From contig CAVXQJ010000016.1 of the NCBI GenBank assembly GCA_963763745.1, forward strand, positions 321,029 to 385,028: a stretch of DNA of 64,000 nucleotides, read 5' to 3'. Numbering within the stretch: the stretch's first letter is position 1; the number at the start of each line of letters is the position of its first letter. Of this stretch, positions 5,019 through 60,924 are shown in pieces. This DNA comes from an uncultured delta proteobacterium. GTDB taxonomy: Bacteria > Myxococcota_A > Polyangia > Polyangiales > Polyangiaceae. The notes under the pieces are model-generated. The model was not told the DNA's origin. It did no database searches and saw only the letters and a list, made by a program, of their open reading frames with translations. The translations under genes and the position numbers were made by a program.

Positions 5019-5942
5019 CTCAGCGCGAGCATGCGATCGATCGGCACGCGCGCCTTTTCGAGGAGCTCCGGGGACATCTCGATGCGCGGCTGCAAATCGC
5101 GGAGGCAGAGATACACCTTCTCGAGCGTGTTCTTCTTCATGAACGGGCACTCGTTGCACGAGCAGCTCGCCTCGGGCGGCGCGGGGATGAACGTCTTGCC
5201 CGAGCCTTCCGCTTGCTTCTGCATCTGGTGCAAAATCCCCGCTTCCGTCGCGATGATGAATTCCTTCTTCGGGCTCGCGAGCGCGTACTTCAAGATGCCC
5301 GTCGTCGAGCCGATGTAGTCGGCCATCTTCAAGAATCGAGTCTTCGCACTCGGGGTGCGCGAGGATCTCCGCGTCGGGGTGCCGCGTCTTCAGCGCCACG
5401 AGCTTCCGCTCGCTGAACGTTTCGTGCACTATACAACTACCTTGCCAGAGCTTCATGGGGCGATCGAGCTTCTTCTCGAGCCAGTGACCGAGGTTCTTGT
5501 CCGGCGCGAAGAGGATCGTCTTGTCCTTCGGGACGGCGTTCACGATCTTCTCGGCGTTCGATGACGTGCAGATGTAGTCCGACAGCGCTTTCACCTCGGC
5601 AGAGCAGTTGATGTACGTGATCGACACGGCGCCCGGGTTGCGCTCGCGCCACGCGCGAAAGCGTTCCGCGGGGCAACCGTCGGCGAGCGAGCAGCCCGCG
5701 TCGAGATCGGGCACGACGACGATCTTGTCGGGGTTCAAGATCTTCGCCGTCTCGGCCATGAAGTGAACGCCCGCGAAACAGATGACGTCGGCGTTCGTCT
5801 TCTTCGCGGCCTGCGCGAGCTGGAGCGAGTCGCCGATCACGTCGGCGACGTCTTGGATGTCGCTCTCTTGGTAGTAGTGCGCGAGGATGACGGCGTTGCG
5901 CTCCTTCTTGAGGCGGCGAATCTCGGCTTCCAAGTCGACCAT
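5015..5942 (-). pseudogene. nadA: Quinolinate synthase NadA, interrupted by a +1 frameshift near 5335
   Basis: The N-terminal 200 aa are in ORF 4662..5942: [60 protein letters not shown]. The C-terminal 105 aa are in ORF 5015..5332: [14 protein letters not shown]...[17 protein letters not shown]. One extra base at ...cttGaagatggcc... shifts the frame. Confidence 0.8.
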
Positions 5943-5982
5943 GCGTTGGATCGTAGGTACGAAATGCCGCTACGCCAACAGG

Positions 5983-6516
5983 TCAATAGTTGGCGCAGGC
6001 AGGCGCGTCGAATGCGCCCTTCACCGACCCATGCGCAAAGACGAGGTCGAGCGTTCCGCGGATCGACGTCGCGCTGATCGCTTCGATCGTGACGGTCCCA
6101 CGCGTGGCGCTCTCGACGAGCGCGCCCTTCGGGCCGTAGAAATTGGCTTCGACCGACATCGGGCTCATGGCGCGCGTGAGCTCGTACGTGCCGGGCGCGA
6201 TCGCACCCGACATGCGCGTGAACGCGAGCTTCACGGTTGGCCCCGATGGTGACTTCACATTTGCGCACGCATCGACGAACGTCGCGATCGTCAGGCCCGC
6301 GAACACGATCATTCCGTGCTTGTAAGACGAGATCGCGTCTTTGCTTTCAAACGCCGCGCCGGCGACCGTTCCGCTGACCGTGCGCGTGACGGGGGCGATC
6401 GATGCGACGGGCGTCGCCGACGAGGACGCGCTCGCCGCCACCGTCGTGGTGGCCGTCGGGCTCGGCTTTCCACACGCGAGCAGGCACGCGCAAGCGACGA
6501 CCGACGACCTCGTCAT
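5983..6516 (-). CDS. Lipoprotein of unknown function
   Basis: The internal Met of ORF 5983..7017 gives MTRSSVVACACLLAC-G, a lipobox, followed by about 160 aa of protein-like sequence. Upstream in that ORF is Arg-rich junk. The ATG at 6516 overlaps the PilZ stop. Confidence 0.6.
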   Translation of the reverse strand: MTRSSVVACACLLACGKPSPTATTTVAASASSSATPVASIAPVTRTVSGTVAGAAFESKDAISSYKHGMIVFAGLTIATFVDACANVKSPSGPTVKLAFTRMSGAIAPGTYELTRAMSPMSVEANFYGPKGALVESATRGTVTIEAISATSIRGTLDLVFAHGSVKGAFDAPACANY

Positions 6517-6926
6517 TCGTCCGGTTTGCGCGAGAGGAGCTTGCCGGAGATGTGCTCGCCGAGCGCGTCGGCCATGAGCTTCTCGACGATGTCGTCGAGC
6601 GCTTGCCGCTCGCTGTCGTCTTGGAAGAGAAAACGAATGCCCATGCCGGGGATGGCGTCGTCGCCGGTTTTCGTCGCGTCGGCGGTGGCGTTGACCCAAA
6701 TCACTTTTCCGCGAAGCTTGAGCTGCGTGTCTTGCGCGGGCAGCGAGAGAACGAAGACAAACTCCGTTCCGATGTCGAGCGGCTTCGCCGTTTTGATGAA
6801 CGTCCCGCCCTTCGAAATGTTCTTCGTGTAGTCCGCGAAGAAAGTGTTCAGCCGTTTGTAGTCGACGCGCAGCGTGATGGCAGCGCGGTCGGCTTGGCGC
6901 TTCTCCGAACCGTCCATGGTAAGCAT
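6513..6926 (-). CDS. PilZ-domain protein (putative c-di-GMP receptor)
   Basis: RVDYKRLNTFFADYTKNISKGGTFIKT...GKVIWV...GMGIRF follows the PilZ pattern. The start is taken at MLTMDG (6926). The N-terminal 24 aa of the track ORF are junk. Confidence 0.65.
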   Translation of the reverse strand: MLTMDGSEKRQADRAAITLRVDYKRLNTFFADYTKNISKGGTFIKTAKPLDIGTEFVFVLSLPAQDTQLKLRGKVIWVNATADATKTGDDAIPGMGIRFLFQDDSERQALDDIVEKLMADALGEHISGKLLSRKPDE

Positions 6927-6931
6927 CGTAC

Positions 6932-8593
6932 ATGGCGTCGAGGCTCGAGGACATGCGCAAGCGCATCGCGGACGTACCCGCGCGCGCGCGTGCGGCATGG
7001 CACATGGGGCGGAACACGGGGGCGATTTGGGAGCTCCGGCCGCGCGGCCTCGTCGAGATGGCGCGCTCGCTGAACCGCGAGTACCAAAACCCGTCCGCGA
7101 TCTACACGATCCACGCGAGAAACCATCCGGGTCGCGTCGCGATTCGATTCCGCGGTCGGTCGATCACGTTCGGCGAGCTCGACGACAGGCTCGATCGGCT
7201 CGCGTCGGGTCTCGTCGACCGCGGGCTCGAGCGCAAACAGAGCGTCCTCGTGATGATGAAGAACCGCCCCGAGTTCATCGAGATCGGCGCGGCAGCCGGG
7301 CGCGCGGGCGCGGCGGCGGTCGCGGTGTCGTGGCGATCGACGCCGCACGAGCTCGCATACCTCGCGAACAACTCGGGCGCGCGCTTCATCTTCTTCGACC
7401 ACGAATTGTGGCCGACGATCGAGCACGCGCTCCCGCAGATCACCGTGCCGCACGAGAAGCTCGTCGCGGTGGGCGGCGACGTGCCCGGTTGCGCGCGCTA
7501 CGAGGATCTTCTCTCGGGCGCGAAGCGCACGATCGAAGGCGACGACGAAGCCGCGGCGGTCGTCACGTACACCTCGGGCACGACGGGAAAACCGAAGGGC
7601 GCGGTGCGCAGGTTTCCGCGCGAGATGTTCGTGCAGATCCTCGAGTTCATCGCGTCGACGCCGATCAAGTCGACGGACGTGCACCTCTGCGTGTGCCCGC
7701 TCTATCACATGACCGCGTTCGCCTTCTTCACGATGACCCACGTCGTCGGCGGCACCGTCGTCATCGCAGACGACTTCAAGCCCGAATCGTTCCTCGAGCT
7801 CGTCGAGCGCGAGCGCGTCACGACGACGGCGATGGTCCCGACGATGCTCCAGCGTCTCCTCACGCACGGCACGGACGCCATCCACGCGCACCGCACGCGA
7901 TCGCTCCGCGCGATCTTCCTCGGCGGCGCGCAGCTCCCCGCGCAGCTCGCGATCGACGCGATGGACATCCTCGGCGACGTCGTCTTCAACTTCTACGGCG
8001 CGACCGAGCTCGGCATCGTGACGCTCGCGTCGCCCGCCGATTTGCGCGCCGCGCCCGGCACCATCGGCCCCGTCGTGTCCGGAAACGACGTGCTCCTCCT
8101 CGACGACGAGAAGAACCCCGTGAAAGACGGCGCGGTCGGCGAGCTCTACGTGAAGAACGCGATGTTGGTAGCAGGGTACCATGGTAACGAATCAGCCATG
8201 CGCGAGAGCATGCACGCGGGTTACTTCAGCGTGGGCGATCTCGCGCGCCGCGACGGCGACGGGCGTTACTTCATCGAAGGCCGCAAGCGCGACATGGTCA
8301 TCTCGGGCGGCGTGAACGTGTATCCCGCGGAGGTGGAGGGCGCGATCGAAGCGCACCCGCAGGTGCTCGAAGCGGCGGTCGTCGGCGTGCCCGATCCCGA
8401 GTGGGGCGAGCGCGTGAAGGCGTTCGTCGTCGCGCGCGCGGGCGAGCGCATCGACTCCGAGCAGCTCAAGCAGTTCCTCCGCGAGCGCATCGCGGGCCCG
8501 AAGATCCCGCGCGAGTACGCGTTCATCGACGCGCTCCCGCGCAACCCGACGGGCAAGGTCTTGAAGAACGATCTGCGCGCACAGCGCGTTTGA
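6932..8593 (+). CDS. AMP-dependent acyl-CoA synthetase/ligase (FadD-like)
   Basis: The 553 aa ORF carries TYTSGTTGKPKG (the AMP-binding P-loop), YGATE, and ...PRNPTGKVLK at the C-terminus. Confidence 0.85.
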   Translation: MASRLEDMRKRIADVPARARAAWHMGRNTGAIWELRPRGLVEMARSLNREYQNPSAIYTIHARNHPGRVAIRFRGRSITFGELDDRLDRLASGLVDRGLERKQSVLVMMKNRPEFIEIGAAAGRAGAAAVAVSWRSTPHELAYLANNSGARFIFFDHELWPTIEHALPQITVPHEKLVAVGGDVPGCARYEDLLSGAKRTIEGDDEAAAVVTYTSGTTGKPKGAVRRFPREMFVQILEFIASTPIKSTDVHLCVCPLYHMTAFAFFTMTHVVGGTVVIADDFKPESFLELVERERVTTTAMVPTMLQRLLTHGTDAIHAHRTRSLRAIFLGGAQLPAQLAIDAMDILGDVVFNFYGATELGIVTLASPADLRAAPGTIGPVVSGNDVLLLDDEKNPVKDGAVGELYVKNAMLVAGYHGNESAMRESMHAGYFSVGDLARRDGDGRYFIEGRKRDMVISGGVNVYPAEVEGAIEAHPQVLEAAVVGVPDPEWGERVKAFVVARAGERIDSEQLKQFLRERIAGPKIPREYAFIDALPRNPTGKVLKNDLRAQRV

Positions 8594-21914: not shown

Positions 21915-22812
21915 ATGCAGTCGGTTGCGTCCGCCCGAAGAGTCGCGTCCCCACGCGTTTTGGCGCGCGACGTGCTCGCGCTCGCGAAGCCGCGCATCAC
22001 GTCGATGGTGCTTCTCACGGCGGCCGGCGGCCTGTGGCTGGCACCGGGTCACGCGTCGCGCACGGCGACCGTGTGCGCGCTCCTCGGCACCGCGCTCATC
22101 GTGAGCGGCGCGAACGCGCTCAACATGTTCATCGAGCGCGACATCGACGGCTTCATGAAGCGCACGAAGGATCGCCCGCTCCCGGCGGGTCGCATGCCCG
22201 CGCGCTTCGCGCTCGTGTTCGGCGTCGCGCTGTCGGTGCTCGCGGTTCCGATCCTCGCGCTCGGCGTCAACGCGCTCGACGGCGCTCCTCGCGGTCCTCG
22301 CGAACCTTCTCTACGTGCTCGCGTACACGCCGCTCAAGCAGCGCTCGCACTGGGCGCTTCAGGTCGGCGCGGTGCCCGGCGCGATCCCTCCGCTCCTCGG
22401 TTGGACGGCAGCGACGGGACGCGTCGACGCGGCGGGCTCGTCCTCTTCGCGATCCTGTTTTTCTGGCAGATCGCCGCATTTTCACGCGATCGCGCTCTTC
22501 CGAAAGCTCGAGTACGGACGCGCGGGCCTCGTCGTTCTTCCGAATGTCGAAGGAGACGAATCCGCGCGTCACAGCATCGTGCGCCACGCGAGCGCGCTCG
22601 CCGCGGTGAGCCTGCTCCTCTATCCGCTGCACGTCGCGCACGGGATTTACGTCGCGTCCGCGCTCGCGCTCGGCGCTTCGTTCATCGCCGTCTCGCTCCT
22701 CGGCATTCGCAAAACGGTCAGCCCGCGCTGGTCGCGCCGCGTCTTCGGAGCCTCGCTCGTGTATCTCGTAGGTCTCTTCGCAGCGATCGCCGCCGACGCG
22801 ATTTGCTCATGA
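21915..22812 (+). pseudogene. ctaB: Protoheme IX farnesyltransferase (heme O synthase), with three frame changes
   Basis: The protein is split across ORFs 21915..(frame 0) and 22315..22812 (frame 1). Recognisable pieces are [90 protein letters not shown](PHF)HAIALFRKLEY. The frame changes are a +1 event near 22280 (ctcGacggcg), a -1 event near 22440 (gggg to ggg) and a +1 event near 22478 (atcGccgcat). Confidence 0.8.
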
Positions 22813-23843: not shown

Positions 23844-24037
23844 CGCGTGTACCACGAAACCTTTTCGCGCTTTCGCGTGCGCGGACGATCTCGCGAATCT
23901 CTCTTGTGCGGTAAGCCCTGCGTCCCCTATAAGGACCGCGCGAACGAGCGTTTGGATCGCGCGCGCGCGATTCATCGAGCACCGTCATTCGTCGGGGCGG
24001 CGTGCTCGAGAGCGACGCTGTCGCAACGAGCCTCTCG

Positions 24038-24667
24038 ATGCAAATTTTCCCCCGAGCTCTGAACAAGCTGCCGCTCTACGGCGCCGTTGGCAGTCTATTC
24101 GCGATGACCGCGGTCGTCGGAGTGTTTTGGTATTACTTCTCGCCGAAGAACCTCCAGGTCGGGTACGCGCCGAAGCAACCGGTGCCGTACAGCCATCGCC
24201 TCCATGCGGGGCAAATGGGCATCGACTGCCGCTACTGCCACGCGCAGGTCGAGCGCGCCGCACACGCGATGATCCCGCCGACGCAAACGTGCATGGGGTG
24301 TCACGCGGTCGTGAAGACCGACAGCGCGATGCTCGCGCCCGTCCGCGAGAGCTGGGAGACCGGCGAGCCGGTGCAGTGGGTCAAGGTCCACAAGCTCCCC
24401 GAGCACACCTACTTCAATCACAGCGTGCACCTCGCGGTCGGCGTCGGCTGCGCAACGTGCCACGGTCGCATCGATCAAATGGACGTCGTGCGTCTCGATA
24501 AACCGATCGCGATGCAGTGGTGCCTCGAGTGCCACAGAAACCCGACACCGAACCTTCGCCCGAAGGATCAGATCACCAACATGAGCTGGACGCCCGAACA
24601 AGCGCCCGCCGGCTGGAAACCGCCGGAAGTGCATCCCCCCACGAACTGCAGCGGGTGCCACCGATGA
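24038..24667 (+). CDS. actA: Alternative Complex III subunit ActA (pentaheme cytochrome c)
   Basis: There are five CxxCH motifs (CRYCH, CMGCH, CATCH, CLECH, CSGCH) and an N-terminal TM anchor. The start may instead be at 24002. Confidence 0.85.
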   Translation: MQIFPRALNKLPLYGAVGSLFAMTAVVGVFWYYFSPKNLQVGYAPKQPVPYSHRLHAGQMGIDCRYCHAQVERAAHAMIPPTQTCMGCHAVVKTDSAMLAPVRESWETGEPVQWVKVHKLPEHTYFNHSVHLAVGVGCATCHGRIDQMDVVRLDKPIAMQWCLECHRNPTPNLRPKDQITNMSWTPEQAPAGWKPPEVHPPTNCSGCHR

Positions 24668-27600: not shown

Positions 27601-27813
27601 GACGCGATCACCTTCGGCGATCTCAACAACCCGAAGGCGGAAGTGACGCGCCTCCAGCGCAGCGAGCGCGGCTACGCGCTCCTCGCCGTCCTCGGCACGC
27701 ACCCGCGCACGACGCACCTCGGAAAGATCCGAAACCCGAGCCCAGCACTCCACAAACCGAAGGTCGCCGATCAGAAACACGAAGGCGGAAGCTCGGGGGA
27801 GGCGCCGAAATGA
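24664..27813 (+). CDS. actB: Alternative Complex III subunit ActB (molybdopterin-oxidoreductase-like domain fused to an Fe-S domain)
   Basis: Tat signal [19 protein letters not shown]. There are three Cys-rich Fe-S motifs ([37 protein letters not shown]). It is 1049 aa and its ATG overlaps the actA stop. Confidence 0.9.
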
Positions 27814-29253
27814 GCAACCGCAACCTGCCCATCAAAGCCATCGGCGAGGTCTACCTCACGAAAGAGGGGATGACCTTCCACGAGATCTCGGACGTCGTAT
27901 GCGGCGTCACCGAGAAGAAGGCGCCACGCAACTGGTGGATCGCCTTCTTCATCGCGTCGACGTTCACCGGCATCCTCTTCTCGGCGATCGGTTACCTCTT
28001 CTGGCAAGGCGTCGGCGTCTGGGGAAACAACGCGCCCGTCTACTGGGCGTGGGACATCACGAACTTCGTCTGGTGGATCGGTATCGGTCACGCCGGCACG
28101 CTCATCAGCGCCGTCCTCTTCATCTTCCGCCAGAAGTGGCGCACGGCGATCAACCGCGCCGCGGAGGCGATGACGATCTTCGCCGTCATCTGCGCGCTCC
28201 TCTTCCCCGGCATCCACGTCGGCCGCGCGTGGTTTGCATACTACATGTTTCCGATCCCGAACCAGATGGCGATCTGGCCGAACTTCAAGAGCCCGCTCAT
28301 CTGGGACCTCTTCGCGGTCAGCACGTACTTCACGGTTTCGCTTTTGTTCTGGTACTCGGGCCTGATTCCGGACTTCGCGCTCCTGCGCGATCGCGCGATG
28401 GGCATGACGGGCCGCGTCGGCAAGGTCCGCCGCCTCGTCTACGGATCGCTCGCGCTCGGTTGGCGCGGATCGAACCGTCACTGGCAGAACTACGAGCGCA
28501 TGTACCTGATCCTCGCGGCCATCTCGACGCCGCTGGTTCTCTCGGTGCACAGCGTCGTCTCGTTCGACTTCGCGACGTCGGTCTTGCCGGGCTGGCACAC
28601 GACGATCTTCCCGCCGTACTTCGTCGCCGGCGCCATCTTCTCCGGCTTCGCGATGGTCATGACGCTCATGCTCGTGACGCGCGCCGTCTACGGCATGAAG
28701 AGCGTCATCACGATGCGCCACCTCGAGCTGATGAACAAGATCATCATGCTCACCGGTTCGCTCGTTGGTTACGCGTACGCGATGGAGTTCTTCATCGCCG
28801 GGTACTCGGGCAACGAGTACGAGCGCTACGTCTTCATGAACCGCGCCTTCGGCCCGTACGCGTGGGCGTACTGGACGATGATCACGTGCAACGTGATCAT
28901 CCCGCAAGCGTTCTGGTTCAAGAAGGCGCGCACGAGCATCCCGATCATGTTCGCGATCTCGATCACCGTGAACATCGGCATGTGGTTCGAGCGCTTCGTC
29001 ATCATCGTGACGTCGCTGCATCGTGACTTCCTGCCGTCGTCGTGGGGTTACTTCCGCCCGACGCATCATCGACATGTGCACGTACACGGGCACGCTCGGG
29101 TTGTTCTTCACGTGCTTCCTCCTCTTCATCCGCTGGGTCCCGATGATCGCGATCGCAGAAGTGAAGGGTGTTCTCCCGGCAGCGGATCCCCACGCAAGCG
29201 ACGAAGAGCACGCACCGGCACACGCGGAGGCAGCGGCGTCGCCCGCGGAATGA
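27810..29253 (+). CDS. actC: Alternative Complex III subunit ActC (NrfD-like membrane subunit), with one +1 frameshift near 29065
   Basis: About 417 aa of polytopic membrane protein are in frame 0. The C-terminal about 60 aa ([35 protein letters not shown]...) are in ORF 29023..29253. The join is at acgCatcatc. Confidence 0.8.
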
Positions 29254-29831
29254 TCATGGCGAAGCGTCGAATTGCTCTCTACTTGGCGAAGTACGACACG
29301 ACGGCCGACGTGCTGCACGCGGCGGAAAAAGTCCGCAAAGCGGGCTACACGAAGTTCGACGCGCACACGCCGTTCCCCATACACGGCATGGACGACGCGA
29401 TGGGCCTGCCCGACAGCAAGGTCGGTTGGATCGTCTTCTTCGGCGGTCTCACCGGCATCTCGTGCGCGTACTTGATGATGTGGTGGATGGGCGGCGTCGA
29501 CTACCCGCTCGTCATCGGCGGCAAGCCCGGCTTCACGCTTCCGTCGAGCGTCCCGATCATGTTCGAGCTGATGGTGCTTATCTCGGCCTTCGGCGCGCTC
29601 TTCGGCATGCTCCACTTGAACCGCCTCCCGCGCCATCACCACCCGGTGTTCGAGTCGGAGACGTTCCGCGAGGCGTCGGACGACAAGTTCTTCATTTCGA
29701 TCGAAGCGGAAGATCCGAAGTTCGATCTCTCCGAAACGAAAGCGGTGCTCGAGTCGACGCACCCCGCGCACCTCGAGCTCGTCGAGGAGCCCGTCGAGGA
29801 AGAAAAAGAAGAAGAGGAGCATCACGCATGA
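29250..29831 (+). CDS. actD: Alternative Complex III subunit ActD
   Basis: [17 protein letters not shown]...two TM helices, then an acidic tail. Its position is conserved between actC and actE. ATGA overlaps occur at both ends. Confidence 0.75.
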
Positions 29832-30412
29832 GAACGACGATGCTGCTCATGAGCGCGCTCGCGCTCGCTGCGTGTCGCGGTCAGACGTCGGAAGACCCGC
29901 CGATCGTCCCGATCCGCAACATGTACGACCAACCGAAGTACGAGATGCAACAGGCCGGTGAGTTCTTCTCGGACAACCGCGCGATGCGCCCGCAGGTCGA
30001 AGGCACGATCTCGCGCGAGCAAGAGATCGACCCGCGCATCGCGCACGGTCGTCTCGAAGACGAAACGGGCTACGTGCTCAACATCCCGCAAGAGGCGATC
30101 GACAAGTTCGGCGGAATGGATCGCACGCTCGCGCGCGGACAAGACCGCTTCGGGATTTATTGCACGGCGTGCCACGGGCTCGACGGCTCGGGGCAGGGGA
30201 TGGTCGTCAAGCACGGCTTCGTGCAACCGCCGACGTACCACTCCGATCGCCTCCGCCACGTCCCCGACGGTCAGATCTACGCGACGATCGAGAACGGTCT
30301 TCGCAACATGCCCGCCTACGGCCCGCAAATTCCGACGTTCGATCGCTGGGCGATCGTCGCGTACGTGCGCGCCCTCCAACTGAGCCAGCAGAGCGCGGAG
30401 AAGAAGCCGTGA
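29828..30412 (+). CDS. actE: Alternative Complex III subunit ActE (monoheme cytochrome c lipoprotein)
   Basis: Lipobox LALAAC-R and a single CTACH heme motif in 194 aa. Confidence 0.8.
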
Positions 30413-32085
30413 CCGACGAGAAAGATCCCAAAGAGGAATCTTCGAAGTCCGAGGAAAAATCGGAGGAGCCGAAGGCTGCCGCCGAGACGAAGGCGTCCGA
30501 CGAAAAGAAGGCCGACGAAAAGAAGGCCGACGAAAAGAAGGCCGACACGAAGAAGGCCTCTGACGAGAAGAAGCCCGAAGAGAAAAAAGAAAAGAAGAAG
30601 AAGGCCGAGAAGGATCCCGCCGACGCGTTCCGCATTCCCGCAAGCCACCCCGTGGCGAGCGTTTGGAAGACGTGCGCCGGATTCGGGCTCGCCGGAACCA
30701 TCGGCGCGGGCTACTCCTACTACGCGCAAGACCACACGCGCTTCGCGTATGCGTGGCTCTTCGGGTTCATCTGCGCGCTCACGCTCGCGATCGGCTCGAT
30801 GATGTTCGTGATGATGCATCACCTCTCGAACGGGAACTGGGGCATCGTCGTGCGCCGCGTCGCGGAGATCTTCGGCGCGTCGTCGTGGGTGCTCATCATC
30901 CTCGTGATCCCCGTGCTCCTCATGCGCGGAACGCTCTTCGGCGAGTGGTTGAAGGGCGAGTCGCATCAAGCGAAAGAACATGCGGCCCTCGAGCCGCAAG
31001 TCGACCCGCACGATTACGAGCTCGCGTCGAACGACTTCCAGTTCCAACCGCACGGGGGCCTCGGTGGGCCCGGTCGCGGCGGCCCGCCGCGCGGGAACCC
31101 GCACGGACCAGGCGGCGGACCCGGCATGCCACCCGGTGACTTTCACGGTCACTCGGGCGTCGGCACCGGTCCGATGTCGGGCACGCCGATCCACGTTCAA
31201 GTGGGCCGCGGCCCCGAGGAGCGCGCCGATCACGTCGAGCACGAAGAGGTGATGAAGGCGAAGAGCTGGTACTTGAACCAGACGTTCTTCTTCGCGCGCC
31301 TCATCGCGTACTTCATCATCTGGTACGCGGTCGGCTTCACGCTCCTCAAGTGGTCGACGGATCAGGACAAGACGAAAGACCTCCGCTTGACGGTGAAGCT
31401 CGCGCGCTTCTCAGCGCCGGGCATCGTGCTGATGGTGCTGACGCTCACGTTCGCCGCGTTCGACTGGATCATGGCGCTCGATCCAACGTGGTACTCGACG
31501 ATCTTCGGCGTGACGTTCTTCGCCGGCTCGATGGTGTGCGTCTTCGCGACGCTCATTCTCGTCTTCCTCGGTTTCCGCAGCAACGGCTTGCTCGTGAAGG
31601 AAGTGACGGTCGAGCACTACCACGACCTCGGCAAGCTCCTCTTCGGCTTCATGTGCTTCTGGGCGTACGTCTGCTTCTCGCAGTTCATGCTCATCTGGTA
31701 CGCGAGCATCCCCGAAGAGGTGACCTTCTATCACCACCGCTGGGACGGCGGGATGTGGAAGAACGTGAGCCTCGCGCTCGTCGGGCTCCACTTCATGTTG
31801 CCGTTCGTCTTCATCATGTCGCGCAACGTGAAGCGCAACCTCGGCATGTTGCGCTTGGGCGCCACGCTGCTGCTGACGATGCACATCATCGACATCTACT
31901 GGCTCATCATGCCGAACGTTCCGCACCAGGGCTCGAACTTCACGCTGGCCTTCGTCGACGTGTGCGGATTCTTCGGACCCGTCGGCATCTTCCTCGCCGT
32001 CGCGTTCCGTCGCATGACCGAATACCCGATCCTTCCGGTCGGCGATCCACGGCTCCAACGCTCCGTTCACTTCGTCAACGCATAG
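30409..32085 (+). CDS. actF: Alternative Complex III subunit ActF (NrfD-like), with an unusual Lys/Glu-rich N-terminal extension and a Gly/Pro-rich loop
   Basis: GTG start overlapping the actE stop (GTGA). There are about 90 aa of KKADEKKADEKKAD low complexity, then a polytopic membrane core (WYASIPEE, TFYHHRW). Confidence 0.8.
   Translation: MTDEKDPKEESSKSEEKSEEPKAAAETKASDEKKADEKKADEKKADTKKASDEKKPEEKKEKKKKAEKDPADAFRIPASHPVASVWKTCAGFGLAGTIGAGYSYYAQDHTRFAYAWLFGFICALTLAIGSMMFVMMHHLSNGNWGIVVRRVAEIFGASSWVLIILVIPVLLMRGTLFGEWLKGESHQAKEHAALEPQVDPHDYELASNDFQFQPHGGLGGPGRGGPPRGNPHGPGGGPGMPPGDFHGHSGVGTGPMSGTPIHVQVGRGPEERADHVEHEEVMKAKSWYLNQTFFFARLIAYFIIWYAVGFTLLKWSTDQDKTKDLRLTVKLARFSAPGIVLMVLTLTFAAFDWIMALDPTWYSTIFGVTFFAGSMVCVFATLILVFLGFRSNGLLVKEVTVEHYHDLGKLLFGFMCFWAYVCFSQFMLIWYASIPEEVTFYHHRWDGGMWKNVSLALVGLHFMLPFVFIMSRNVKRNLGMLRLGATLLLTMHIIDIYWLIMPNVPHQGSNFTLAFVDVCGFFGPVGIFLAVAFRRMTEYPILPVGDPRLQRSVHFVNA
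30499..30552 (+). repeat. Three tandem 18-nt repeats (gacgaaaagaaggccgac) encoding DEKKAD units
   Basis: Perfect triplication inside the actF 5' region. It is locally AT-richer than the rest of the genome. Confidence 0.8.
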
Positions 32086-32091
32086 GTTCCC

Positions 32092-32595
32092 ATGGCTTCC
32101 GAAGACACACGGCCCAAAGTCCGCATGCTGCTCACGATCGGCATCGTGTCGGTGTCGCTGCTCGTGGGCATCAAGTTCGTGCTCGACAGCTACTACCTCG
32201 ACATGGTCGAAAACTACGAGCACGGCCTCTTGCCGAAGACGGAGCTCCTCGACAAGACGCGCACGGATCAACACGCCGCGCTCGACAAGGGCGAGAACGG
32301 AAACATCCCGGTGAGCGTCGCGATGCAAACGCTCGCATCGAAGGGACGCGACAACGCCGACCCGCTCATCACGGCGCAACCCTCCGATGACATCGAGCCG
32401 CTCAAAGGTTGGACGAAGCTCCAACACCAAGTTCACCTCCCTCCACAAGTGACGACGATCGCGCCGCCTCCTCCGCAAGCACCGCTCGGCGACGCGGGCG
32501 CGACCACCGCGACGGACGCGGGCGCACCGCCGAAAGACGCGGGCGCTCCACACGTGATCCAACACCTCGACGCGACGAAAGACGGAGGCAAGTAG
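32092..32595 (+). CDS. Small membrane-anchored protein (possible ActG-like accessory subunit)
   Basis: One N-terminal TM helix (MLLTIGIVSVSLLVGIKFVL) and a Pro/Ala-rich tail. It sits between actF and sco1. Confidence 0.45.
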   Translation: MASEDTRPKVRMLLTIGIVSVSLLVGIKFVLDSYYLDMVENYEHGLLPKTELLDKTRTDQHAALDKGENGNIPVSVAMQTLASKGRDNADPLITAQPSDDIEPLKGWTKLQHQVHLPPQVTTIAPPPPQAPLGDAGATTATDAGAPPKDAGAPHVIQHLDATKDGGK

Positions 32596-34482: not shown

Positions 34483-36135
<1,653 letters not shown>

Positions 36136-36137
36136 CC

Positions 36138-36902
36138 ATGACTGAAGCGGCAGCGGAACACGACGAACACGAGCACGCCGGGGAGGAGCACCACGGCGAT
36201 CATCCCAAGTGGCTGCAACACCACTGGGACACGCCCGCGCAGCAATTCGACGCGGCGAAGATCGGCATGTGGGCGTTCCTCGGGCAGGAGCTGCTCTTCT
36301 TCAGCGGGCTCTTCGTCGCCTACGCGATTTTCCGCACGTGGTACGGCGCGGCGTTCGCGGCGGGCTCGCACGAGCTCAATCGCACGATGGGCGCGGCGAA
36401 CACGTGCGTTCTCCTCTTCTCCAGCTTGACCGCGGCGCTCGGCGTCCGTTCGTCGCAGCTCGGCAAGAAGAACGAGACGTCGATGTGGATCGTCCTCACG
36501 ATCGCGTGCGCGTTCATCTTCTTGGTCGTGAAGTACTTCGAGTACCACGCGAAGTTCGAGCACGGCCTCTTGCCGGGGTCGTTCTTCGGCACGCCGCGCG
36601 ACATGCTCACGTTCCAGCCGCTCGTCGGGCACCACTCGCCCGCCGAGGAGCTGCCGGATCACACGCACGTCTACTTCTCGCTGTACTTCATCATGACGGG
36701 CATCCACGCGCTCCACGTCATCATCGGAATCGGCGTGTGGATCTGGATCCTGAAGCGCAACCTCCGCGGCGATTTCTCGAAGCGGTATTTCACTCCGGTC
36801 GACGTGACGGCGCTCTACTGGCACCTCGTCGACCTCGTGTGGATCTACCTCTTCCCGCTGATGTACCTCATCGACTACGTGCCGCCTGGCCACAAGGGCT
36901 GA
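36138..36902 (+). CDS. coxC: Cytochrome c oxidase subunit III
   Basis: 254 aa, polytopic. The C-terminal helices are typical of subunit III (HVIIGIGVWIW, LYWHLVDLVWI). Confidence 0.85.
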   Translation: MTEAAAEHDEHEHAGEEHHGDHPKWLQHHWDTPAQQFDAAKIGMWAFLGQELLFFSGLFVAYAIFRTWYGAAFAAGSHELNRTMGAANTCVLLFSSLTAALGVRSSQLGKKNETSMWIVLTIACAFIFLVVKYFEYHAKFEHGLLPGSFFGTPRDMLTFQPLVGHHSPAEELPDHTHVYFSLYFIMTGIHALHVIIGIGVWIWILKRNLRGDFSKRYFTPVDVTALYWHLVDLVWIYLFPLMYLIDYVPPGHKG

Positions 36903-36907
36903 CCGCC

Positions 36908-37483
36908 ATGACCGAAGAAGAAAAAGAGCACGAAGAGCACGAGGAAGAGGGTCACGATCACGATCATGATCATGATCACGACCATGATCACGATCCATAC
37001 GATCACGATCACGATCACGGCGAAGAAGGGCCCTACGGCGCGGACGAAGTGCACGCGCACATCGGGTCGTACAAGCTTTATGGCGCCGTCTTCGTCGCGC
37101 TGATCTTCTGCACGCTCCTCACCGTGGGCGTCGCGGCGATTCACCTCGGCAAGGCGAACCTCGCGGTCGCCGTCATCATCGCGTCGATCAAAGCGGCGCT
37201 CGTCTGCACGTTCTTCATGCACTTGAAGGACGACAACAAGTTCAACTCGCTCATCCTCATCGCGGCGGTCACGTTCATCGGCGTCTTCTTCGCGCTCACG
37301 CTGAACGACGTGAGCTATCGCGAGAAGCTCGACACGCAGAGCGGCAATCGCGTGTTCCTCCAGTCGGGCGACTCCGCGCCCGGAAGCTGGGAGAACCCCG
37401 TGAAGAAGGAAGAGAAAAAGGAAGAAGCCGCGCCGGCTCCGGCTGGAAGCGGCAGCGCTGCGCCGGCCCCAAAGCACGAGTGA
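36908..37483 (+). CDS. coxD: Cytochrome c oxidase subunit IV (prokaryotic caa3 small subunit) with a (His-Asp)n N-terminal repeat
   Basis: HIGSYKLYGAVFVALIFCTLLTVGVA matches the CoxIV-like helices. The N-terminus has GHDHDHDHDHDHDHDPYDHDHDHG. Confidence 0.7.
   Translation: MTEEEKEHEEHEEEGHDHDHDHDHDHDHDPYDHDHDHGEEGPYGADEVHAHIGSYKLYGAVFVALIFCTLLTVGVAAIHLGKANLAVAVIIASIKAALVCTFFMHLKDDNKFNSLILIAAVTFIGVFFALTLNDVSYREKLDTQSGNRVFLQSGDSAPGSWENPVKKEEKKEEAAPAPAGSGSAAPAPKHE
36945..37020 (+). repeat. Hexanucleotide (CAY-GAY)n microsatellite-like repeat encoding (His-Asp)n
   Basis: cacgatcacgatcatgatcatgatcacgaccatgatcacgatccatacgatcacgatcacgatcac within coxD. Confidence 0.8.
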
Positions 37484-48157: not shown

Positions 48158-49635
48158 GACGTCGAGATCACGTTTCGATTTTCGCCGGCCGTCTCGCATC
48201 CACATCCATCTTTCGGCGGCGGGGAAGCAGTCGCCGGCGCGTTGGGACAAGGGTCGTAGCTCGGATCACTGTACGCGCTCGTCTGGATCGTGGTCGAGAG
48301 GGTCGATTGGTCGCCGCTCGCTTTGAGCTTCAAGTCGACCGCGAGCGCGTTCGCGGGGAGCGTCGTACGGAGGCGCGTCACGCGAATGTCGTAGGCATTC
48401 ATCGATTGCGTGGCGACGTCATAGTCGGTGAAGTACATGCACGCGGGTACGTAGTCGACGCACGTCGATGCGTCCGGTGCGCTGCCGTCGGCGATGCCGC
48501 CGTCGCTCGTCGTCGTCGTCGTGTCGTCGCTCGCGTCCGACGCATCGTCGCTCGCGTCGTCGCCGGCCTCCGCGGTCGCATCATCCATCGCGTCGTCCGT
48601 CGCGTCGTCGGGTGCATCCGTCGCCGCGTCGGGCGTGCCGCCGTCGTCGGGGCACGCGACGGGAACTTGCGGCGCCTTCAAGCACGCTGCTTGGTAGAGG
48701 CTCCCGAGATTGCCCACGGGCACGGACGATTCCGTCACCCAGCCGACGCCAGCCGTGACGGTGGTGTCGAACAGCTCCGAGTAGTTCGAGCGCTGAGCGG
48801 CGCCGTCCCAGACGACCTTCGAGCGATCGACGAGCAGCGCGGGAAAGCTCGAGGACTCGTAGCGACCTTCGCCGATGACGTAGAGCGTGAGCCCGACGGA
48901 CTGACCGATCCCGGCGGCGACCATGCGAAGCGGGAGCGTCGGGTCCGCGCCGGGCGTCGTCACGCGAACGGGTTGCATCGCGTTGACGCCCTCGTTCGGC
49001 GCGAGCTTCAGCGCGATGAAGTCGAAGCCTTCGTTCGTGTACGCGTCGAGCACGGGCTGGATCGACGTGGGAATGTCGAACCCGTTGTCGGTGAGCCAGG
49101 TCGAGATCGCTTCGCCGCTCGACGATCGAATCGTGACGGCGACGTATGGACCGACGACCTCTTGGGAGATCACGGTGACGCCGTTGCCGCCGTCGAAGTT
49201 GGCGCTCGCGTCGGCGTAGTTTCCGCCGCTGTACGAAACGGAGCTGTCGGATGCGCCGCAGCCGAACCCGCCCCCGCCACCGCCGCCATTGAATGCGCCG
49301 CAGCGCGACGGAAGCGGCGGCGAGTAGACAGCAGGGCTACTCGTGATGTCGAGCGCTTGAAGCCACTCGTCGCGCGCCAGATCGATCGTCGCGCCTTGTC
49401 CAACCGGGAGGACCCAGGCGAATTCGCTCGGGTTGCCCGTGTAACGAATCTGATCCCAGAGCACCGTTTGCGACGTCGAGATCGAAAACGCCATGCGGTG
49501 GTCGGTGACGACGCTCGTCGTCTGGTTCTGCCCCGGCGGCGGATGAAAACAACCTCCGCACGCGTGAGCGGGCGGCGCGTAAGTCACGATGGCCGCGAGA
49601 CCGAAGAGCGAAGAAAGAAGGAGTTGACGATTCAT
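48103..49635 (-). CDS. DUF2330-like secreted protein with a MYXO-CTERM tail (paralog 3), carrying an acidic Asp/Ala/Thr-rich insert
   Basis: AHACGGCF after the signal peptide. It shares the blocks of paralogs 1 and 2. It ends GCGCETAGEN...LMLIALASLVRRRSRSR. Confidence 0.7.
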   Translation of the reverse strand: MNRQLLLSSLFGLAAIVTYAPPAHACGGCFHPPPGQNQTTSVVTDHRMAFSISTSQTVLWDQIRYTGNPSEFAWVLPVGQGATIDLARDEWLQALDITSSPAVYSPPLPSRCGAFNGGGGGGGFGCGASDSSVSYSGGNYADASANFDGGNGVTVISQEVVGPYVAVTIRSSSGEAISTWLTDNGFDIPTSIQPVLDAYTNEGFDFIALKLAPNEGVNAMQPVRVTTPGADPTLPLRMVAAGIGQSVGLTLYVIGEGRYESSSFPALLVDRSKVVWDGAAQRSNYSELFDTTVTAGVGWVTESSVPVGNLGSLYQAACLKAPQVPVACPDDGGTPDAATDAPDDATDDAMDDATAEAGDDASDDASDASDDTTTTTSDGGIADGSAPDASTCVDYVPACMYFTDYDVATQSMNAYDIRVTRLRTTLPANALAVDLKLKASGDQSTLSTTIQTSAYSDPSYDPCPNAPATASPPPKDGCGCETAGENRNVISTSLMLIALASLVRRRSRSR

Positions 49636-59472: not shown

Positions 59473-60924
59473 CTACTGCTTCTGCACCATGACGGTGCCG
59501 CTCACGATGAAGAGCTGCTGATTCACGGGCGTGATCGTGAGCACGGGACCTTCGACGCCGATGTCCACGATCGTGCGAACGGGCTCGCCGCGCGCGACCG
59601 ACCCAGTCACGTTGACGATCTCGTCGCCGATGCGCAGTTGGTCGGCGCGAATGACGCCGCGCGACGACTCGTAGATCGGATGATTCGGCGTGACGTGGAG
59701 GCGACCATTCACGAGGAGCAGGCTCTGCGGCTCGTGGCGATCGATCTTCGCGATGGGCGACGGGCGGAGCGCGTGCGTTCCCCAGTCGTACGTCATCACG
59801 ACGTCGCCCTCGTGGAGCGTGCCCATCGCGCGCTCGGTGCCGTCGCCCATGAGCACGGGCTCGCTCTCGGGGAAACATCCACCGCCGCCGCCGCAGCACG
59901 TCGAGCGCGTGCACGTGCGACCGCAGTTGTCGGTGCCGGTGCCGCAGCACTCCGAGCACGAGGTCAGGACCGACGTGCACCCGCACACGTTCGCGGTGCC
60001 GCCGCCGCCGCACGTGTCGGGCGAGACGCAGTTCGGGCCGCACGAAATGTTGCCGCCGCATCCGTTCGGCACGGTGCCGCAGTTCGCGCCCGTCGGGCAC
60101 GTGCCCGTCGGCGTGCATCCGCATTGATGCGCGGTGCCGCCGCCGCCGCACGTCTGCGGCGAGGTGCACGTGACGCACGGACCGACGTGCCGCCGCACCC
60201 GTTCGAGATCGCGTCGCACGAGGTTGCCCGCTTGCGCGCACGTCTTCGCGGTGCATCCGCATTGGTGCGCGGTGCCGCCGCCGCCGCACGTCTGCGGCGA
60301 GCTGCACGTCGTGCATGGACCGACGGTGCCGCCGCATCCGTTCGGGACGGCGTCGCATGGGTTGCCGATCTGCGAGTCACCGCATTTGTACGGCGTGCAT
60401 GGCGTCGCGCTGCATTTGCCGTTGTCGCAGTTCGGCGTGTTGCCGGAGCAACCGGCGCCGCAGTTGATGGTGTCGCTCGCGCAGCCCGTTGGGTACGTGC
60501 CGCACGCGGGATTGTTGTAGTCTGCACACGTTTTCGCGACGCATTTGCACGCGTTGTTCACGCACGAGTCCGTGCCGCATGCGCCGCAGTCGAGCGAATG
60601 ACCGCAGCCGTCGTCGACGGTGCCGCACGCCGCGTTGAGCTCGGTGCAGGTCTTCGGCGTGCACTCGCACTTCTGTCCGTTGCACGTGTAGTTCTGTGGG
60701 CATTGCGTGCCGCAGTCGAGCGTGTTGCCGCAGCCGTCGTTTTGAATTCCGCACGCGGCGAGCGATGCGCACGTCTGGCATTGCGTGGAGCCGTCGCCGG
60801 AGACGACGCCGCCGTCGGGGTTTTGGAATTTGTCGAAGTCGACGCCGAGCAGCGAGCTGCACCCGGTGAGAGCGAGCGCGAGCGCGAACCAAACGATCAC
60901 GTACTTCTGCATCGCCGCCTCCAT
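59473..60924 (-). CDS. Lipoprotein with myxobacterial Cys-rich repeats and a C-terminal Hint (Hedgehog/intein-like) domain
   Basis: Lipobox LALTGC-S. Repeated ...SPQTCGGGGTAHQCGCT... units. C-terminal CFPESEPVLMGDGTERAMGTLHEGDVVMTYDWG...TPNHPIY...GDEIVNVTGS. Confidence 0.7.
   Translation of the reverse strand: MEAAMQKYVIVWFALALALTGCSSLLGVDFDKFQNPDGGVVSGDGSTQCQTCASLAACGIQNDGCGNTLDCGTQCPQNYTCNGQKCECTPKTCTELNAACGTVDDGCGHSLDCGACGTDSCVNNACKCVAKTCADYNNPACGTYPTGCASDTINCGAGCSGNTPNCDNGKCSATPCTPYKCGDSQIGNPCDAVPNGCGGTVGPCTTCSSPQTCGGGGTAHQCGCTAKTCAQAGNLVRRDLERVRRHVGPCVTCTSPQTCGGGGTAHQCGCTPTGTCPTGANCGTVPNGCGGNISCGPNCVSPDTCGGGGTANVCGCTSVLTSCSECCGTGTDNCGRTCTRSTCCGGGGGCFPESEPVLMGDGTERAMGTLHEGDVVMTYDWGTHALRPSPIAKIDRHEPQSLLLVNGRLHVTPNHPIYESSRGVIRADQLRIGDEIVNVTGSVARGEPVRTIVDIGVEGPVLTITPVNQQLFIVSGTVMVQKQ

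Follow-up and report, generated by a model that had tools for sequence, protein, structure and literature searches.

Alternative complex III (ACIII) is encoded, in a 64,000-nucleotide stretch of contig CAVXQJ010000016.1 from an uncultured delta proteobacterium of the Polyangiaceae (GenBank assembly GCA_963763745.1, positions 321,029 to 385,028; hereafter the window), by an actABCDEF cluster that is followed by an SCO1-like gene and genes for a caa3 oxidase. Our subject is the last gene of this cluster, actF (30409..32085, + strand; 558 amino acids plus stop), which encodes membrane subunit F of the complex and differs from its structurally characterized counterparts by two low-complexity additions—a charged N-terminal tail and a long loop between transmembrane helices (TMH) 3 and 4. 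Upstream lie the pentahaem gene actA (24002-24667), with five CxxCH motifs; actB, with Fer4 and molybdopterin-type domains; a segment carrying NrfD and ActD domains (27810-29828); and the cytochrome c gene actE (29828-30409; domains from Pfam). Downstream of actF follow, in order, a small conserved open reading frame (ORF), the SCO1-like gene, coxII, coxI, and coxIII. Placement of ACIII genes upstream of oxidase genes is the usual arrangement (PMC5928083) and is shared with Rhodothermus marinus.

No Pfam or NCBIfam family matched the actF product at E ≤ 0.01, including the NrfD family (PF03916), so the identity of the gene was taken from solved structures and fold comparison. Using phmmer, the closest matches among solved chains were ActF subunits (6f0k_F, E = 3e-63; 8k9e_F, 2e-56; 6lod_F, 1e-53; 6btm_F, 3e-36), with ActC chains far weaker (6f0k_C, 4e-8) and identity to 6f0k_F at about 29%. 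AlphaFold, given 111 homologues, produced a model with ten long helices and a mean predicted local distance difference test score (pLDDT) of 79.6; its top Foldseek matches were likewise ActF chains (target TM-score 0.83-0.92, the highest with 6f0k_F), and ActC chains were recovered at E-values of 6e-7 to 3e-5. The superfamily fold shared with ActC, PsrC, and other NrfD-like quinol-binding subunits is thus visible only through structure and weak phmmer matches to ActC. Sequence and modelled fold together identify the gene as a standard actF, coding for the second of the NrfD-like membrane subunits in ACIII, in agreement with the name given by a first-pass annotation of the same DNA.

The predicted core retains the architecture of R. 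marinus ActF (6F0K chain F; also 6LOD_F, 8K9E_F, and 6BTM_F), in which two four-helix bundles are accompanied by TMH1 and TMH10. In the model, TMH1 to TMH3 span amino acids 81-171 (30649..30921, +), while TMH4 to TMH10, the conserved ActF core by both alignment and model, span amino acids 291-538 (31279..32022, +). Four putative channel residues of R. marinus ActF—Ser80, His88, Arg100, and Glu103, the first four listed and the only ones mapped—correspond in the phmmer alignment to S130, H138, R150, and E153, all within the first three helices; R150, E153, and K285 are invariant among 111 aligned sequences. Quinol binding in ActC is attributed to His139, Ser164, Asp169, and Asp253, and membership of the ActF family suggests that the product described here would lack an ActC-type quinol site (PMC5928083, PMC8076601). 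The core would then be a standard ten-helix ActF without a catalytic role, acting as a putative proton-path subunit.

Set against R. marinus ActF, the protein carries about 50 extra residues at the N-terminus and about 86-100 extra residues between TMH3 and TMH4. The tail is read from GTG at 30409, which overlaps the actE stop TGA (30410-30412) as GTGA and is preceded, 8 nucleotides upstream, by GGAG at 30397-30400 (context 30397..30412, +, read directly from the sequence). Its first eight codons (30409..30432, +) encode a cap, (M/V)TDEKDPK, that follows the pattern M/V-T/S-D-E/D-K-D in 25 close homologues, in which positions 2-6 are T in 22/25, D in 25/25, E in 23/25, K in 24/25, and D in 24/25. 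This start context, the conserved cap, and the frame kept open in homologues indicate that the extension is translated, and the K/E/D-rich N-terminus quoted in the first-pass annotation is indeed encoded by the ORF at 30409-32085 (+). The annotation had put the extension at about 90 amino acids; the low-complexity part, rich in K, E, D, S, and A, covers about 68 (amino acids 2-69; 30412..30615, +), with 85 residues in all preceding TMH1. Amino acids 1-70 include 23 K, 16 E, and 8 D, and no other 50-residue stretch in any ORF of at least 100 amino acids in the window has at least 12 K together with at least 12 D/E. Charge is unevenly spread, at -5 in the distal part and +3 in the membrane-proximal part; the same split occurs in close homologues (≥56% identity), with several more distant tails net basic. 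Just before TMH1, 25 homologues aligned over the 30 residues ahead of W86 delimit a lysine cluster, KKEKKKKAEK, followed by DPADAFR (30583..30633, +). The tail has a G+C content of 54% and the loop core one of 79%, within a window at 66% rather than the 70% reported earlier for the genome.

Single alpha-helix domains are long, stable, isolated helices of alternating blocks of E and K/R. This identity was rejected for the tail because AlphaFold and DSSP return coil for amino acids 1-60 with a pLDDT of 46-56, and the low-complexity region as a whole is without secondary structure at the same confidence; Pro and Ser interrupt the tail both here and in orthologues.

The second addition is a predicted periplasmic TMH3-TMH4 loop (amino acids 172-290; 30922..31278, +) that alignment shows to be about 100 amino acids longer than in R. 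marinus ActF, its topology following PMC5928083. In place of amino acids 178-275, R. marinus ActF has only the roughly 12 residues that separate positions 127 and 140, and some 86 amino acids (182-267) lack a counterpart in the solved ActF chains. A Gly/Pro-rich insert noted earlier is present at amino acids 216-255 (31054..31173, +), where NPHGPGG-type units form the core of the loop (modelled coil, pLDDT ~47-55), but it belongs to this larger segment of about 86 residues, which is coil in the AlphaFold model (pLDDT ~46-56); the loop is rich in His too (10 in 115 amino acids). Two helices are predicted, one on each side of the core: the short YELASNDFQF at amino acids 200-209 (31006..31035, +), and PEERADHVEHEEVMKAK at amino acids 268-284 (31210..31260, +), ahead of TMH4 and conserved as ...VEHEEVMK.K. 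The motif ELA(A/S)ND is common to the loops of close relatives (P0001-P0026), as are NPHG(P)GG-type units and the His residues of KEHA, IHVQVG, and VEHEEVM. Elsewhere the loop core has been replaced by Ala/Pro-rich sequence or by an OmpA domain, the latter in four homologues (P0032, P0034, P0038, and P0039; 631-661 amino acids) in which Pfam places it at about amino acids 216-315. Judged by domain content, these four Myxococcota ActF proteins would combine a membrane subunit of ACIII with a domain of the cell-wall-anchor (peptidoglycan-binding) type.

The two additions are predicted to lie on opposite sides of the membrane. Both termini of ActF are on the cytoplasmic (N) side in solved structures, and its TMH3-4 loop deviates from that of ActC and PsrC and forms no quinol pocket (PMC5928083, PMC8076601). 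These structures, together with the helix positions in the model, place the tail in the cytoplasm and the Gly/Pro/His-rich insert in the periplasm by homology. The OmpA domain found in the loop of four homologues supports the periplasmic assignment independently, and a crude positive-inside count gave 9 membrane-proximal K+R on the cytoplasmic side vs 5 on the periplasmic side. The first-pass annotation had proposed a cytoplasmic arm, which fits the N-terminal extension but not the Gly/Pro-rich segment. The quinol pocket of ActC and PsrC is built on the periplasmic side by their first bundle of four helices, TMH3-4 included (PMC5928083), whereas the equivalent position in the ActF described here is occupied by a long loop predicted to be disordered; by model confidence, both this loop and the tail are predicted to be intrinsically disordered.

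We surveyed the 120 best homologues of the protein, with a close set of 24 full-length sequences at ≥56% identity. All 24 have an N-terminal region of 47-97 amino acids containing 40-61% K+E+D, ending in a lysine cluster plus DPADAFR, and all 120 have a TMH3-4 loop of 72-246 amino acids (G+P 14-41%, His 8.4% overall). Homologues assigned to Myxococcota from public metagenomes and metagenome-assembled genomes (MAGs; P0002-P0026, L001, L002, and L007) share the MTDEKD cap, the K/E/D-rich tail, the KKKK-DPADAFR boundary, and the Gly/Pro/His-rich loop; what differs by lineage is the length of the tail and its repeat units. A tail is also carried by ActF of the cultured Pendulispora brunnea (P0115), whose N-terminal region measures 45 amino acids. 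Across GTDB, long loops (66-153 amino acids) were found in Myxococcota MAGs, including Polyangiaceae, Labilithrix, Myxococcaceae, and those labeled ‘delta proteobacterium’. ActF of Planctomycetota, Acidobacteriota, Bdellovibrionota, Ignavibacteria, and an Anaeromyxobacter MAG has instead loops of 12-35 amino acids (17 in Anaeromyxobacter) and short, uncharged N-termini, and a single Phycisphaerae MAG with a 77-amino-acid loop was the exception outside Myxococcota. The K/E/D-rich tail is more narrowly confined, to a subclade, the N-terminus of Myxococcaceae ActF being short. By these sequence comparisons both additions are typical of the lineage, and the earlier description of the extension as highly unusual does not survive the ortholog alignment: related taxa share it, the very outcome that the first-pass annotation had named as speaking against novelty.

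Within the tail, an exact 15-nucleotide tandem tract of 50 nucleotides and 3.33 copies (30497..30546, +) encodes (S)DEKKADEKKADEKKAD, each unit specifying ADEKK; Tandem Repeats Finder extends the array to 30497-30558 (4.1 copies, 93% matches). Perfect tandem DNA repeats had been reported here with an 18-nucleotide unit, and the repeats are real, but a period of 18 amounts merely to a 7-nucleotide self-match and was rejected. The nearest homologue (74% identity by BLASTP, 81% in the alignment) lacks the tract and has a single ADEKK in that region; a search for a close strain found none, this 74% BLASTP match being the nearest. Other lineages carry units of their own—EEKKP x3, EAKSEKKS x3.1, EKSA x2.5, KKAE x2.8, and PEEKSEK x2—and L002 has an independent DNA array of 24 nucleotides x 4.8 at the equivalent place in its tail. 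Because the units differ across lineages, the comparison points to in-frame slippage that has recurred in a stretch constrained in its composition and ends but not in its sequence. Among the homologues compared, only the exact ADEKK x3.3 tract is private to this genome; on the same evidence the tract is recent and the tail itself old.

These observations allow several other accounts of the tail to be weighed. One is that it is an annotation artefact, as the first-pass annotation had allowed, with the true start at GTG 30652 (amino acid 82) and the K/E/D-rich region untranslated or simply the end of actE. Long spurious open frames are common in high-GC genomes, and the gene call for one relative, P0023 (419 amino acids), does begin downstream. 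That call is shortened, however, by an assembly frameshift: the actF of L001 (MAG MFD01872.bin.1.328; 5590-7447) shifts frame after TMH1, producing the short P0023, and the upstream ORF still reads ...DPADAFRLSPDHPVANAWKTFAG. No in-frame start codon lies between 30409 and 30652, and similarity to R. marinus ActF begins at amino acid 74, upstream of 30652, such that initiation there would cut off conserved ActF sequence. The 24 orthologues, moreover, stay in frame through tails of 47-97 amino acids and share the first six residues. A start at 30652 was rejected on the alignment to R. marinus, the upstream ORF of L001, and the conserved cap; we regard it as extremely improbable, and GTG 30409 is, by this reading of the sequence, the correct start.

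A recent repeat expansion, also proposed earlier, describes the short ADEKK tract well, with its 3.3 perfect copies not shared by the nearest homologue. As an account of the entire extension it is quite improbable: the perfect tract covers just 17 of the roughly 68 low-complexity residues, and homologues with as little as 50-56% identity, like every member of the close full-length set, have comparable tails whose ends are conserved. Still less probable, in our view, is a mistake of the assembly in the number of repeat copies or in some of the low-complexity sequence. Apparent single-base indels break actC and a ctaB-like gene in the window, which suggests an error-prone (long-read) assembly, but such errors are single-base indels and not gains of 15-nucleotide units, and actF is in frame throughout and aligns end to end with its orthologues.

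We consider it probable that the gene is an ordinary Myxococcota-type actF, in which a ten-helix core bears two intrinsically disordered low-complexity additions typical of the lineage. The tail (amino acids 1 to about 75) may be understood as three parts: the cap MTDEKDxK, a variable and net-acidic K/E/D/S/A spacer (amino acids 8-58), and the lysine cluster (amino acids 59-68) with DPADAFR at TMH1. The spacer would change in length when short in-frame repeats slip during replication (here 15 nucleotides x 3.3 encoding ADEKK), and it could serve as a flexible, largely unconstrained bristle or tether. The lysine cluster would most likely sit on the anionic inner leaflet and reinforce the N-in orientation of TMH1, while the conserved cap may be a short binding motif or may stem from selection that translation initiation exerts on the opening codons. 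The loop, for its part, stands at the position of the ActC quinol pocket; having lost that pocket, ActF would leave the loop free to expand, and loss of this role would explain why the loop tolerates lengths from 12 to about 250 amino acids and even a whole inserted domain. In this lineage it would be a Gly/Pro/His-rich disordered segment of 70-250 amino acids, whose two conserved helices probably pack against the complex. A role for either addition as a supercomplex interface was dropped, as in R. marinus the oxidase docks beside ActC and not ActF. Several points weigh against this interpretation. Literature searches found no experimental data on any Myxococcota ACIII; the disorder of both segments is a prediction read solely from AlphaFold confidence; and the exact repeat copy number hinges on the quality of an assembly with indels in actC and the ctaB-like gene. 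In addition, the conserved cap, the maintained composition, and the His-containing motifs show some selection, which a purely neutral spacer does not explain.

Another reading gives the periplasmic loop a specific function: it could bind a metal (Cu/Zn) or serve as a surface that collects or buffers protons close to where the ActF channel opens on the P side. The His content across the 120 homologues and the recurrence in close relatives of NPHG(P)GG-type units and His-containing motifs are in its favor, as are the adjoining SCO1-like and caa3 oxidase genes and a neighboring small oxidase subunit with an (HD)n N-terminus. Tandem prion-type octarepeats, PHGGGWGQ, use His and Gly amides to bind Cu(II), and the loop bears a loose resemblance to them, with only two or three PHG(P)GG units that lack Trp and are not in exact tandem. 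Against a specific function, the length (72-246 amino acids) and sequence of the loop are highly variable, some lineages have exchanged its core for an OmpA domain or for sequence rich in Ala and Pro, and it matches no Pfam or NCBIfam family. We consider a function of this kind unlikely. A broader version, to which we would give a slimmer chance, joins the ActF loop with the His/Asp-rich tails of neighboring oxidase subunits, the (HD)n N-terminus of the small subunit at about 36906-37483 among them, into a metal-buffering (Cu/Zn) or proton-antenna surface on the Myxococcota ACIII-caa3 assembly, and likewise treats the MTDEKD cap as a short linear motif recruiting a cytoplasmic partner.

Several other features of the window were recorded alongside this analysis. 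Directly 3' of actF, a 167-amino-acid ORF (32092-32595) has one predicted transmembrane segment and a Pro/Ala-rich tail; it matched no Pfam or NCBIfam family, is kept at the equivalent position in L001 (7458-8000), and may encode a subunit of ACIII that is ActG-like or specific to the lineage. A 673-amino-acid ORF at 27810-29831 has the appearance of an ActC-ActD fusion and contains an apparent single-base frameshift in actC near 29060-29070, after which the frame following ...SWGYFRPT reads junk and runs into actD (MIMAKRR...). The +1 frame matches the intact ActC C-terminus of L001, and the fusion was rejected as an artefact of the frameshift, which would come from an indel in the assembly or mark a true pseudogene. 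A ctaB/cyoE-like gene for a haem O synthase lies before the act cluster (~21915-22812) and is split over at least two frames, with the pieces ...GRVDAAG, LVLFAILFFWQI, and PHFHAIALF... in different ORFs, and this is further evidence of assembly indel errors.

Low-complexity ends also occur on other respiratory subunits encoded nearby. Just 3' of coxIII, a 6-nucleotide tandem repeat (TCACGA x 11.8, 36952-37019) encodes an (HD)n run, GHDHDHDHDHDHDPYDHDHDHG, in an ORF ending at 37483; the run forms the N-terminus of a small membrane protein, possibly oxidase subunit IV, which has a K/E/A/P-rich C-terminal tail, KKEEKKEEAAPAPAGSGSAAPAPKHE. The CoxIII N-terminus (~36130-36200) is short, low-complexity, and charged or His-rich (MTEAAAEHDEHEHAGEEHHGDH...), and ends of this type are present on the C-termini of ActD (29800-29831) and ActC (29200-29260). 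Collectively, these look like a general habit of the organism. Two further tandem arrays lie at 48501-48631 (24 nucleotides x 5.6) and 59992-60366 (138 nucleotides x ~2.6).

The significance of these results beyond annotation is small. In many Myxococcota—Polyangia-like lineages and Myxococcaceae, but not the Anaeromyxobacter MAG—the TMH3-4 loop of ActF, predicted to be periplasmic, is long, and one subclade adds a polyampholyte tail on the predicted cytoplasmic side; neither feature is represented in the four solved ACIII structures. Work on a myxobacterial ACIII, whether modelling or purification, should allow for about 150 disordered residues in ActF and leave its start codon untrimmed. Expansion of the loop at the position of the ActC pocket, including the insertion of an OmpA domain, is consistent with the loss of quinol binding by ActF.

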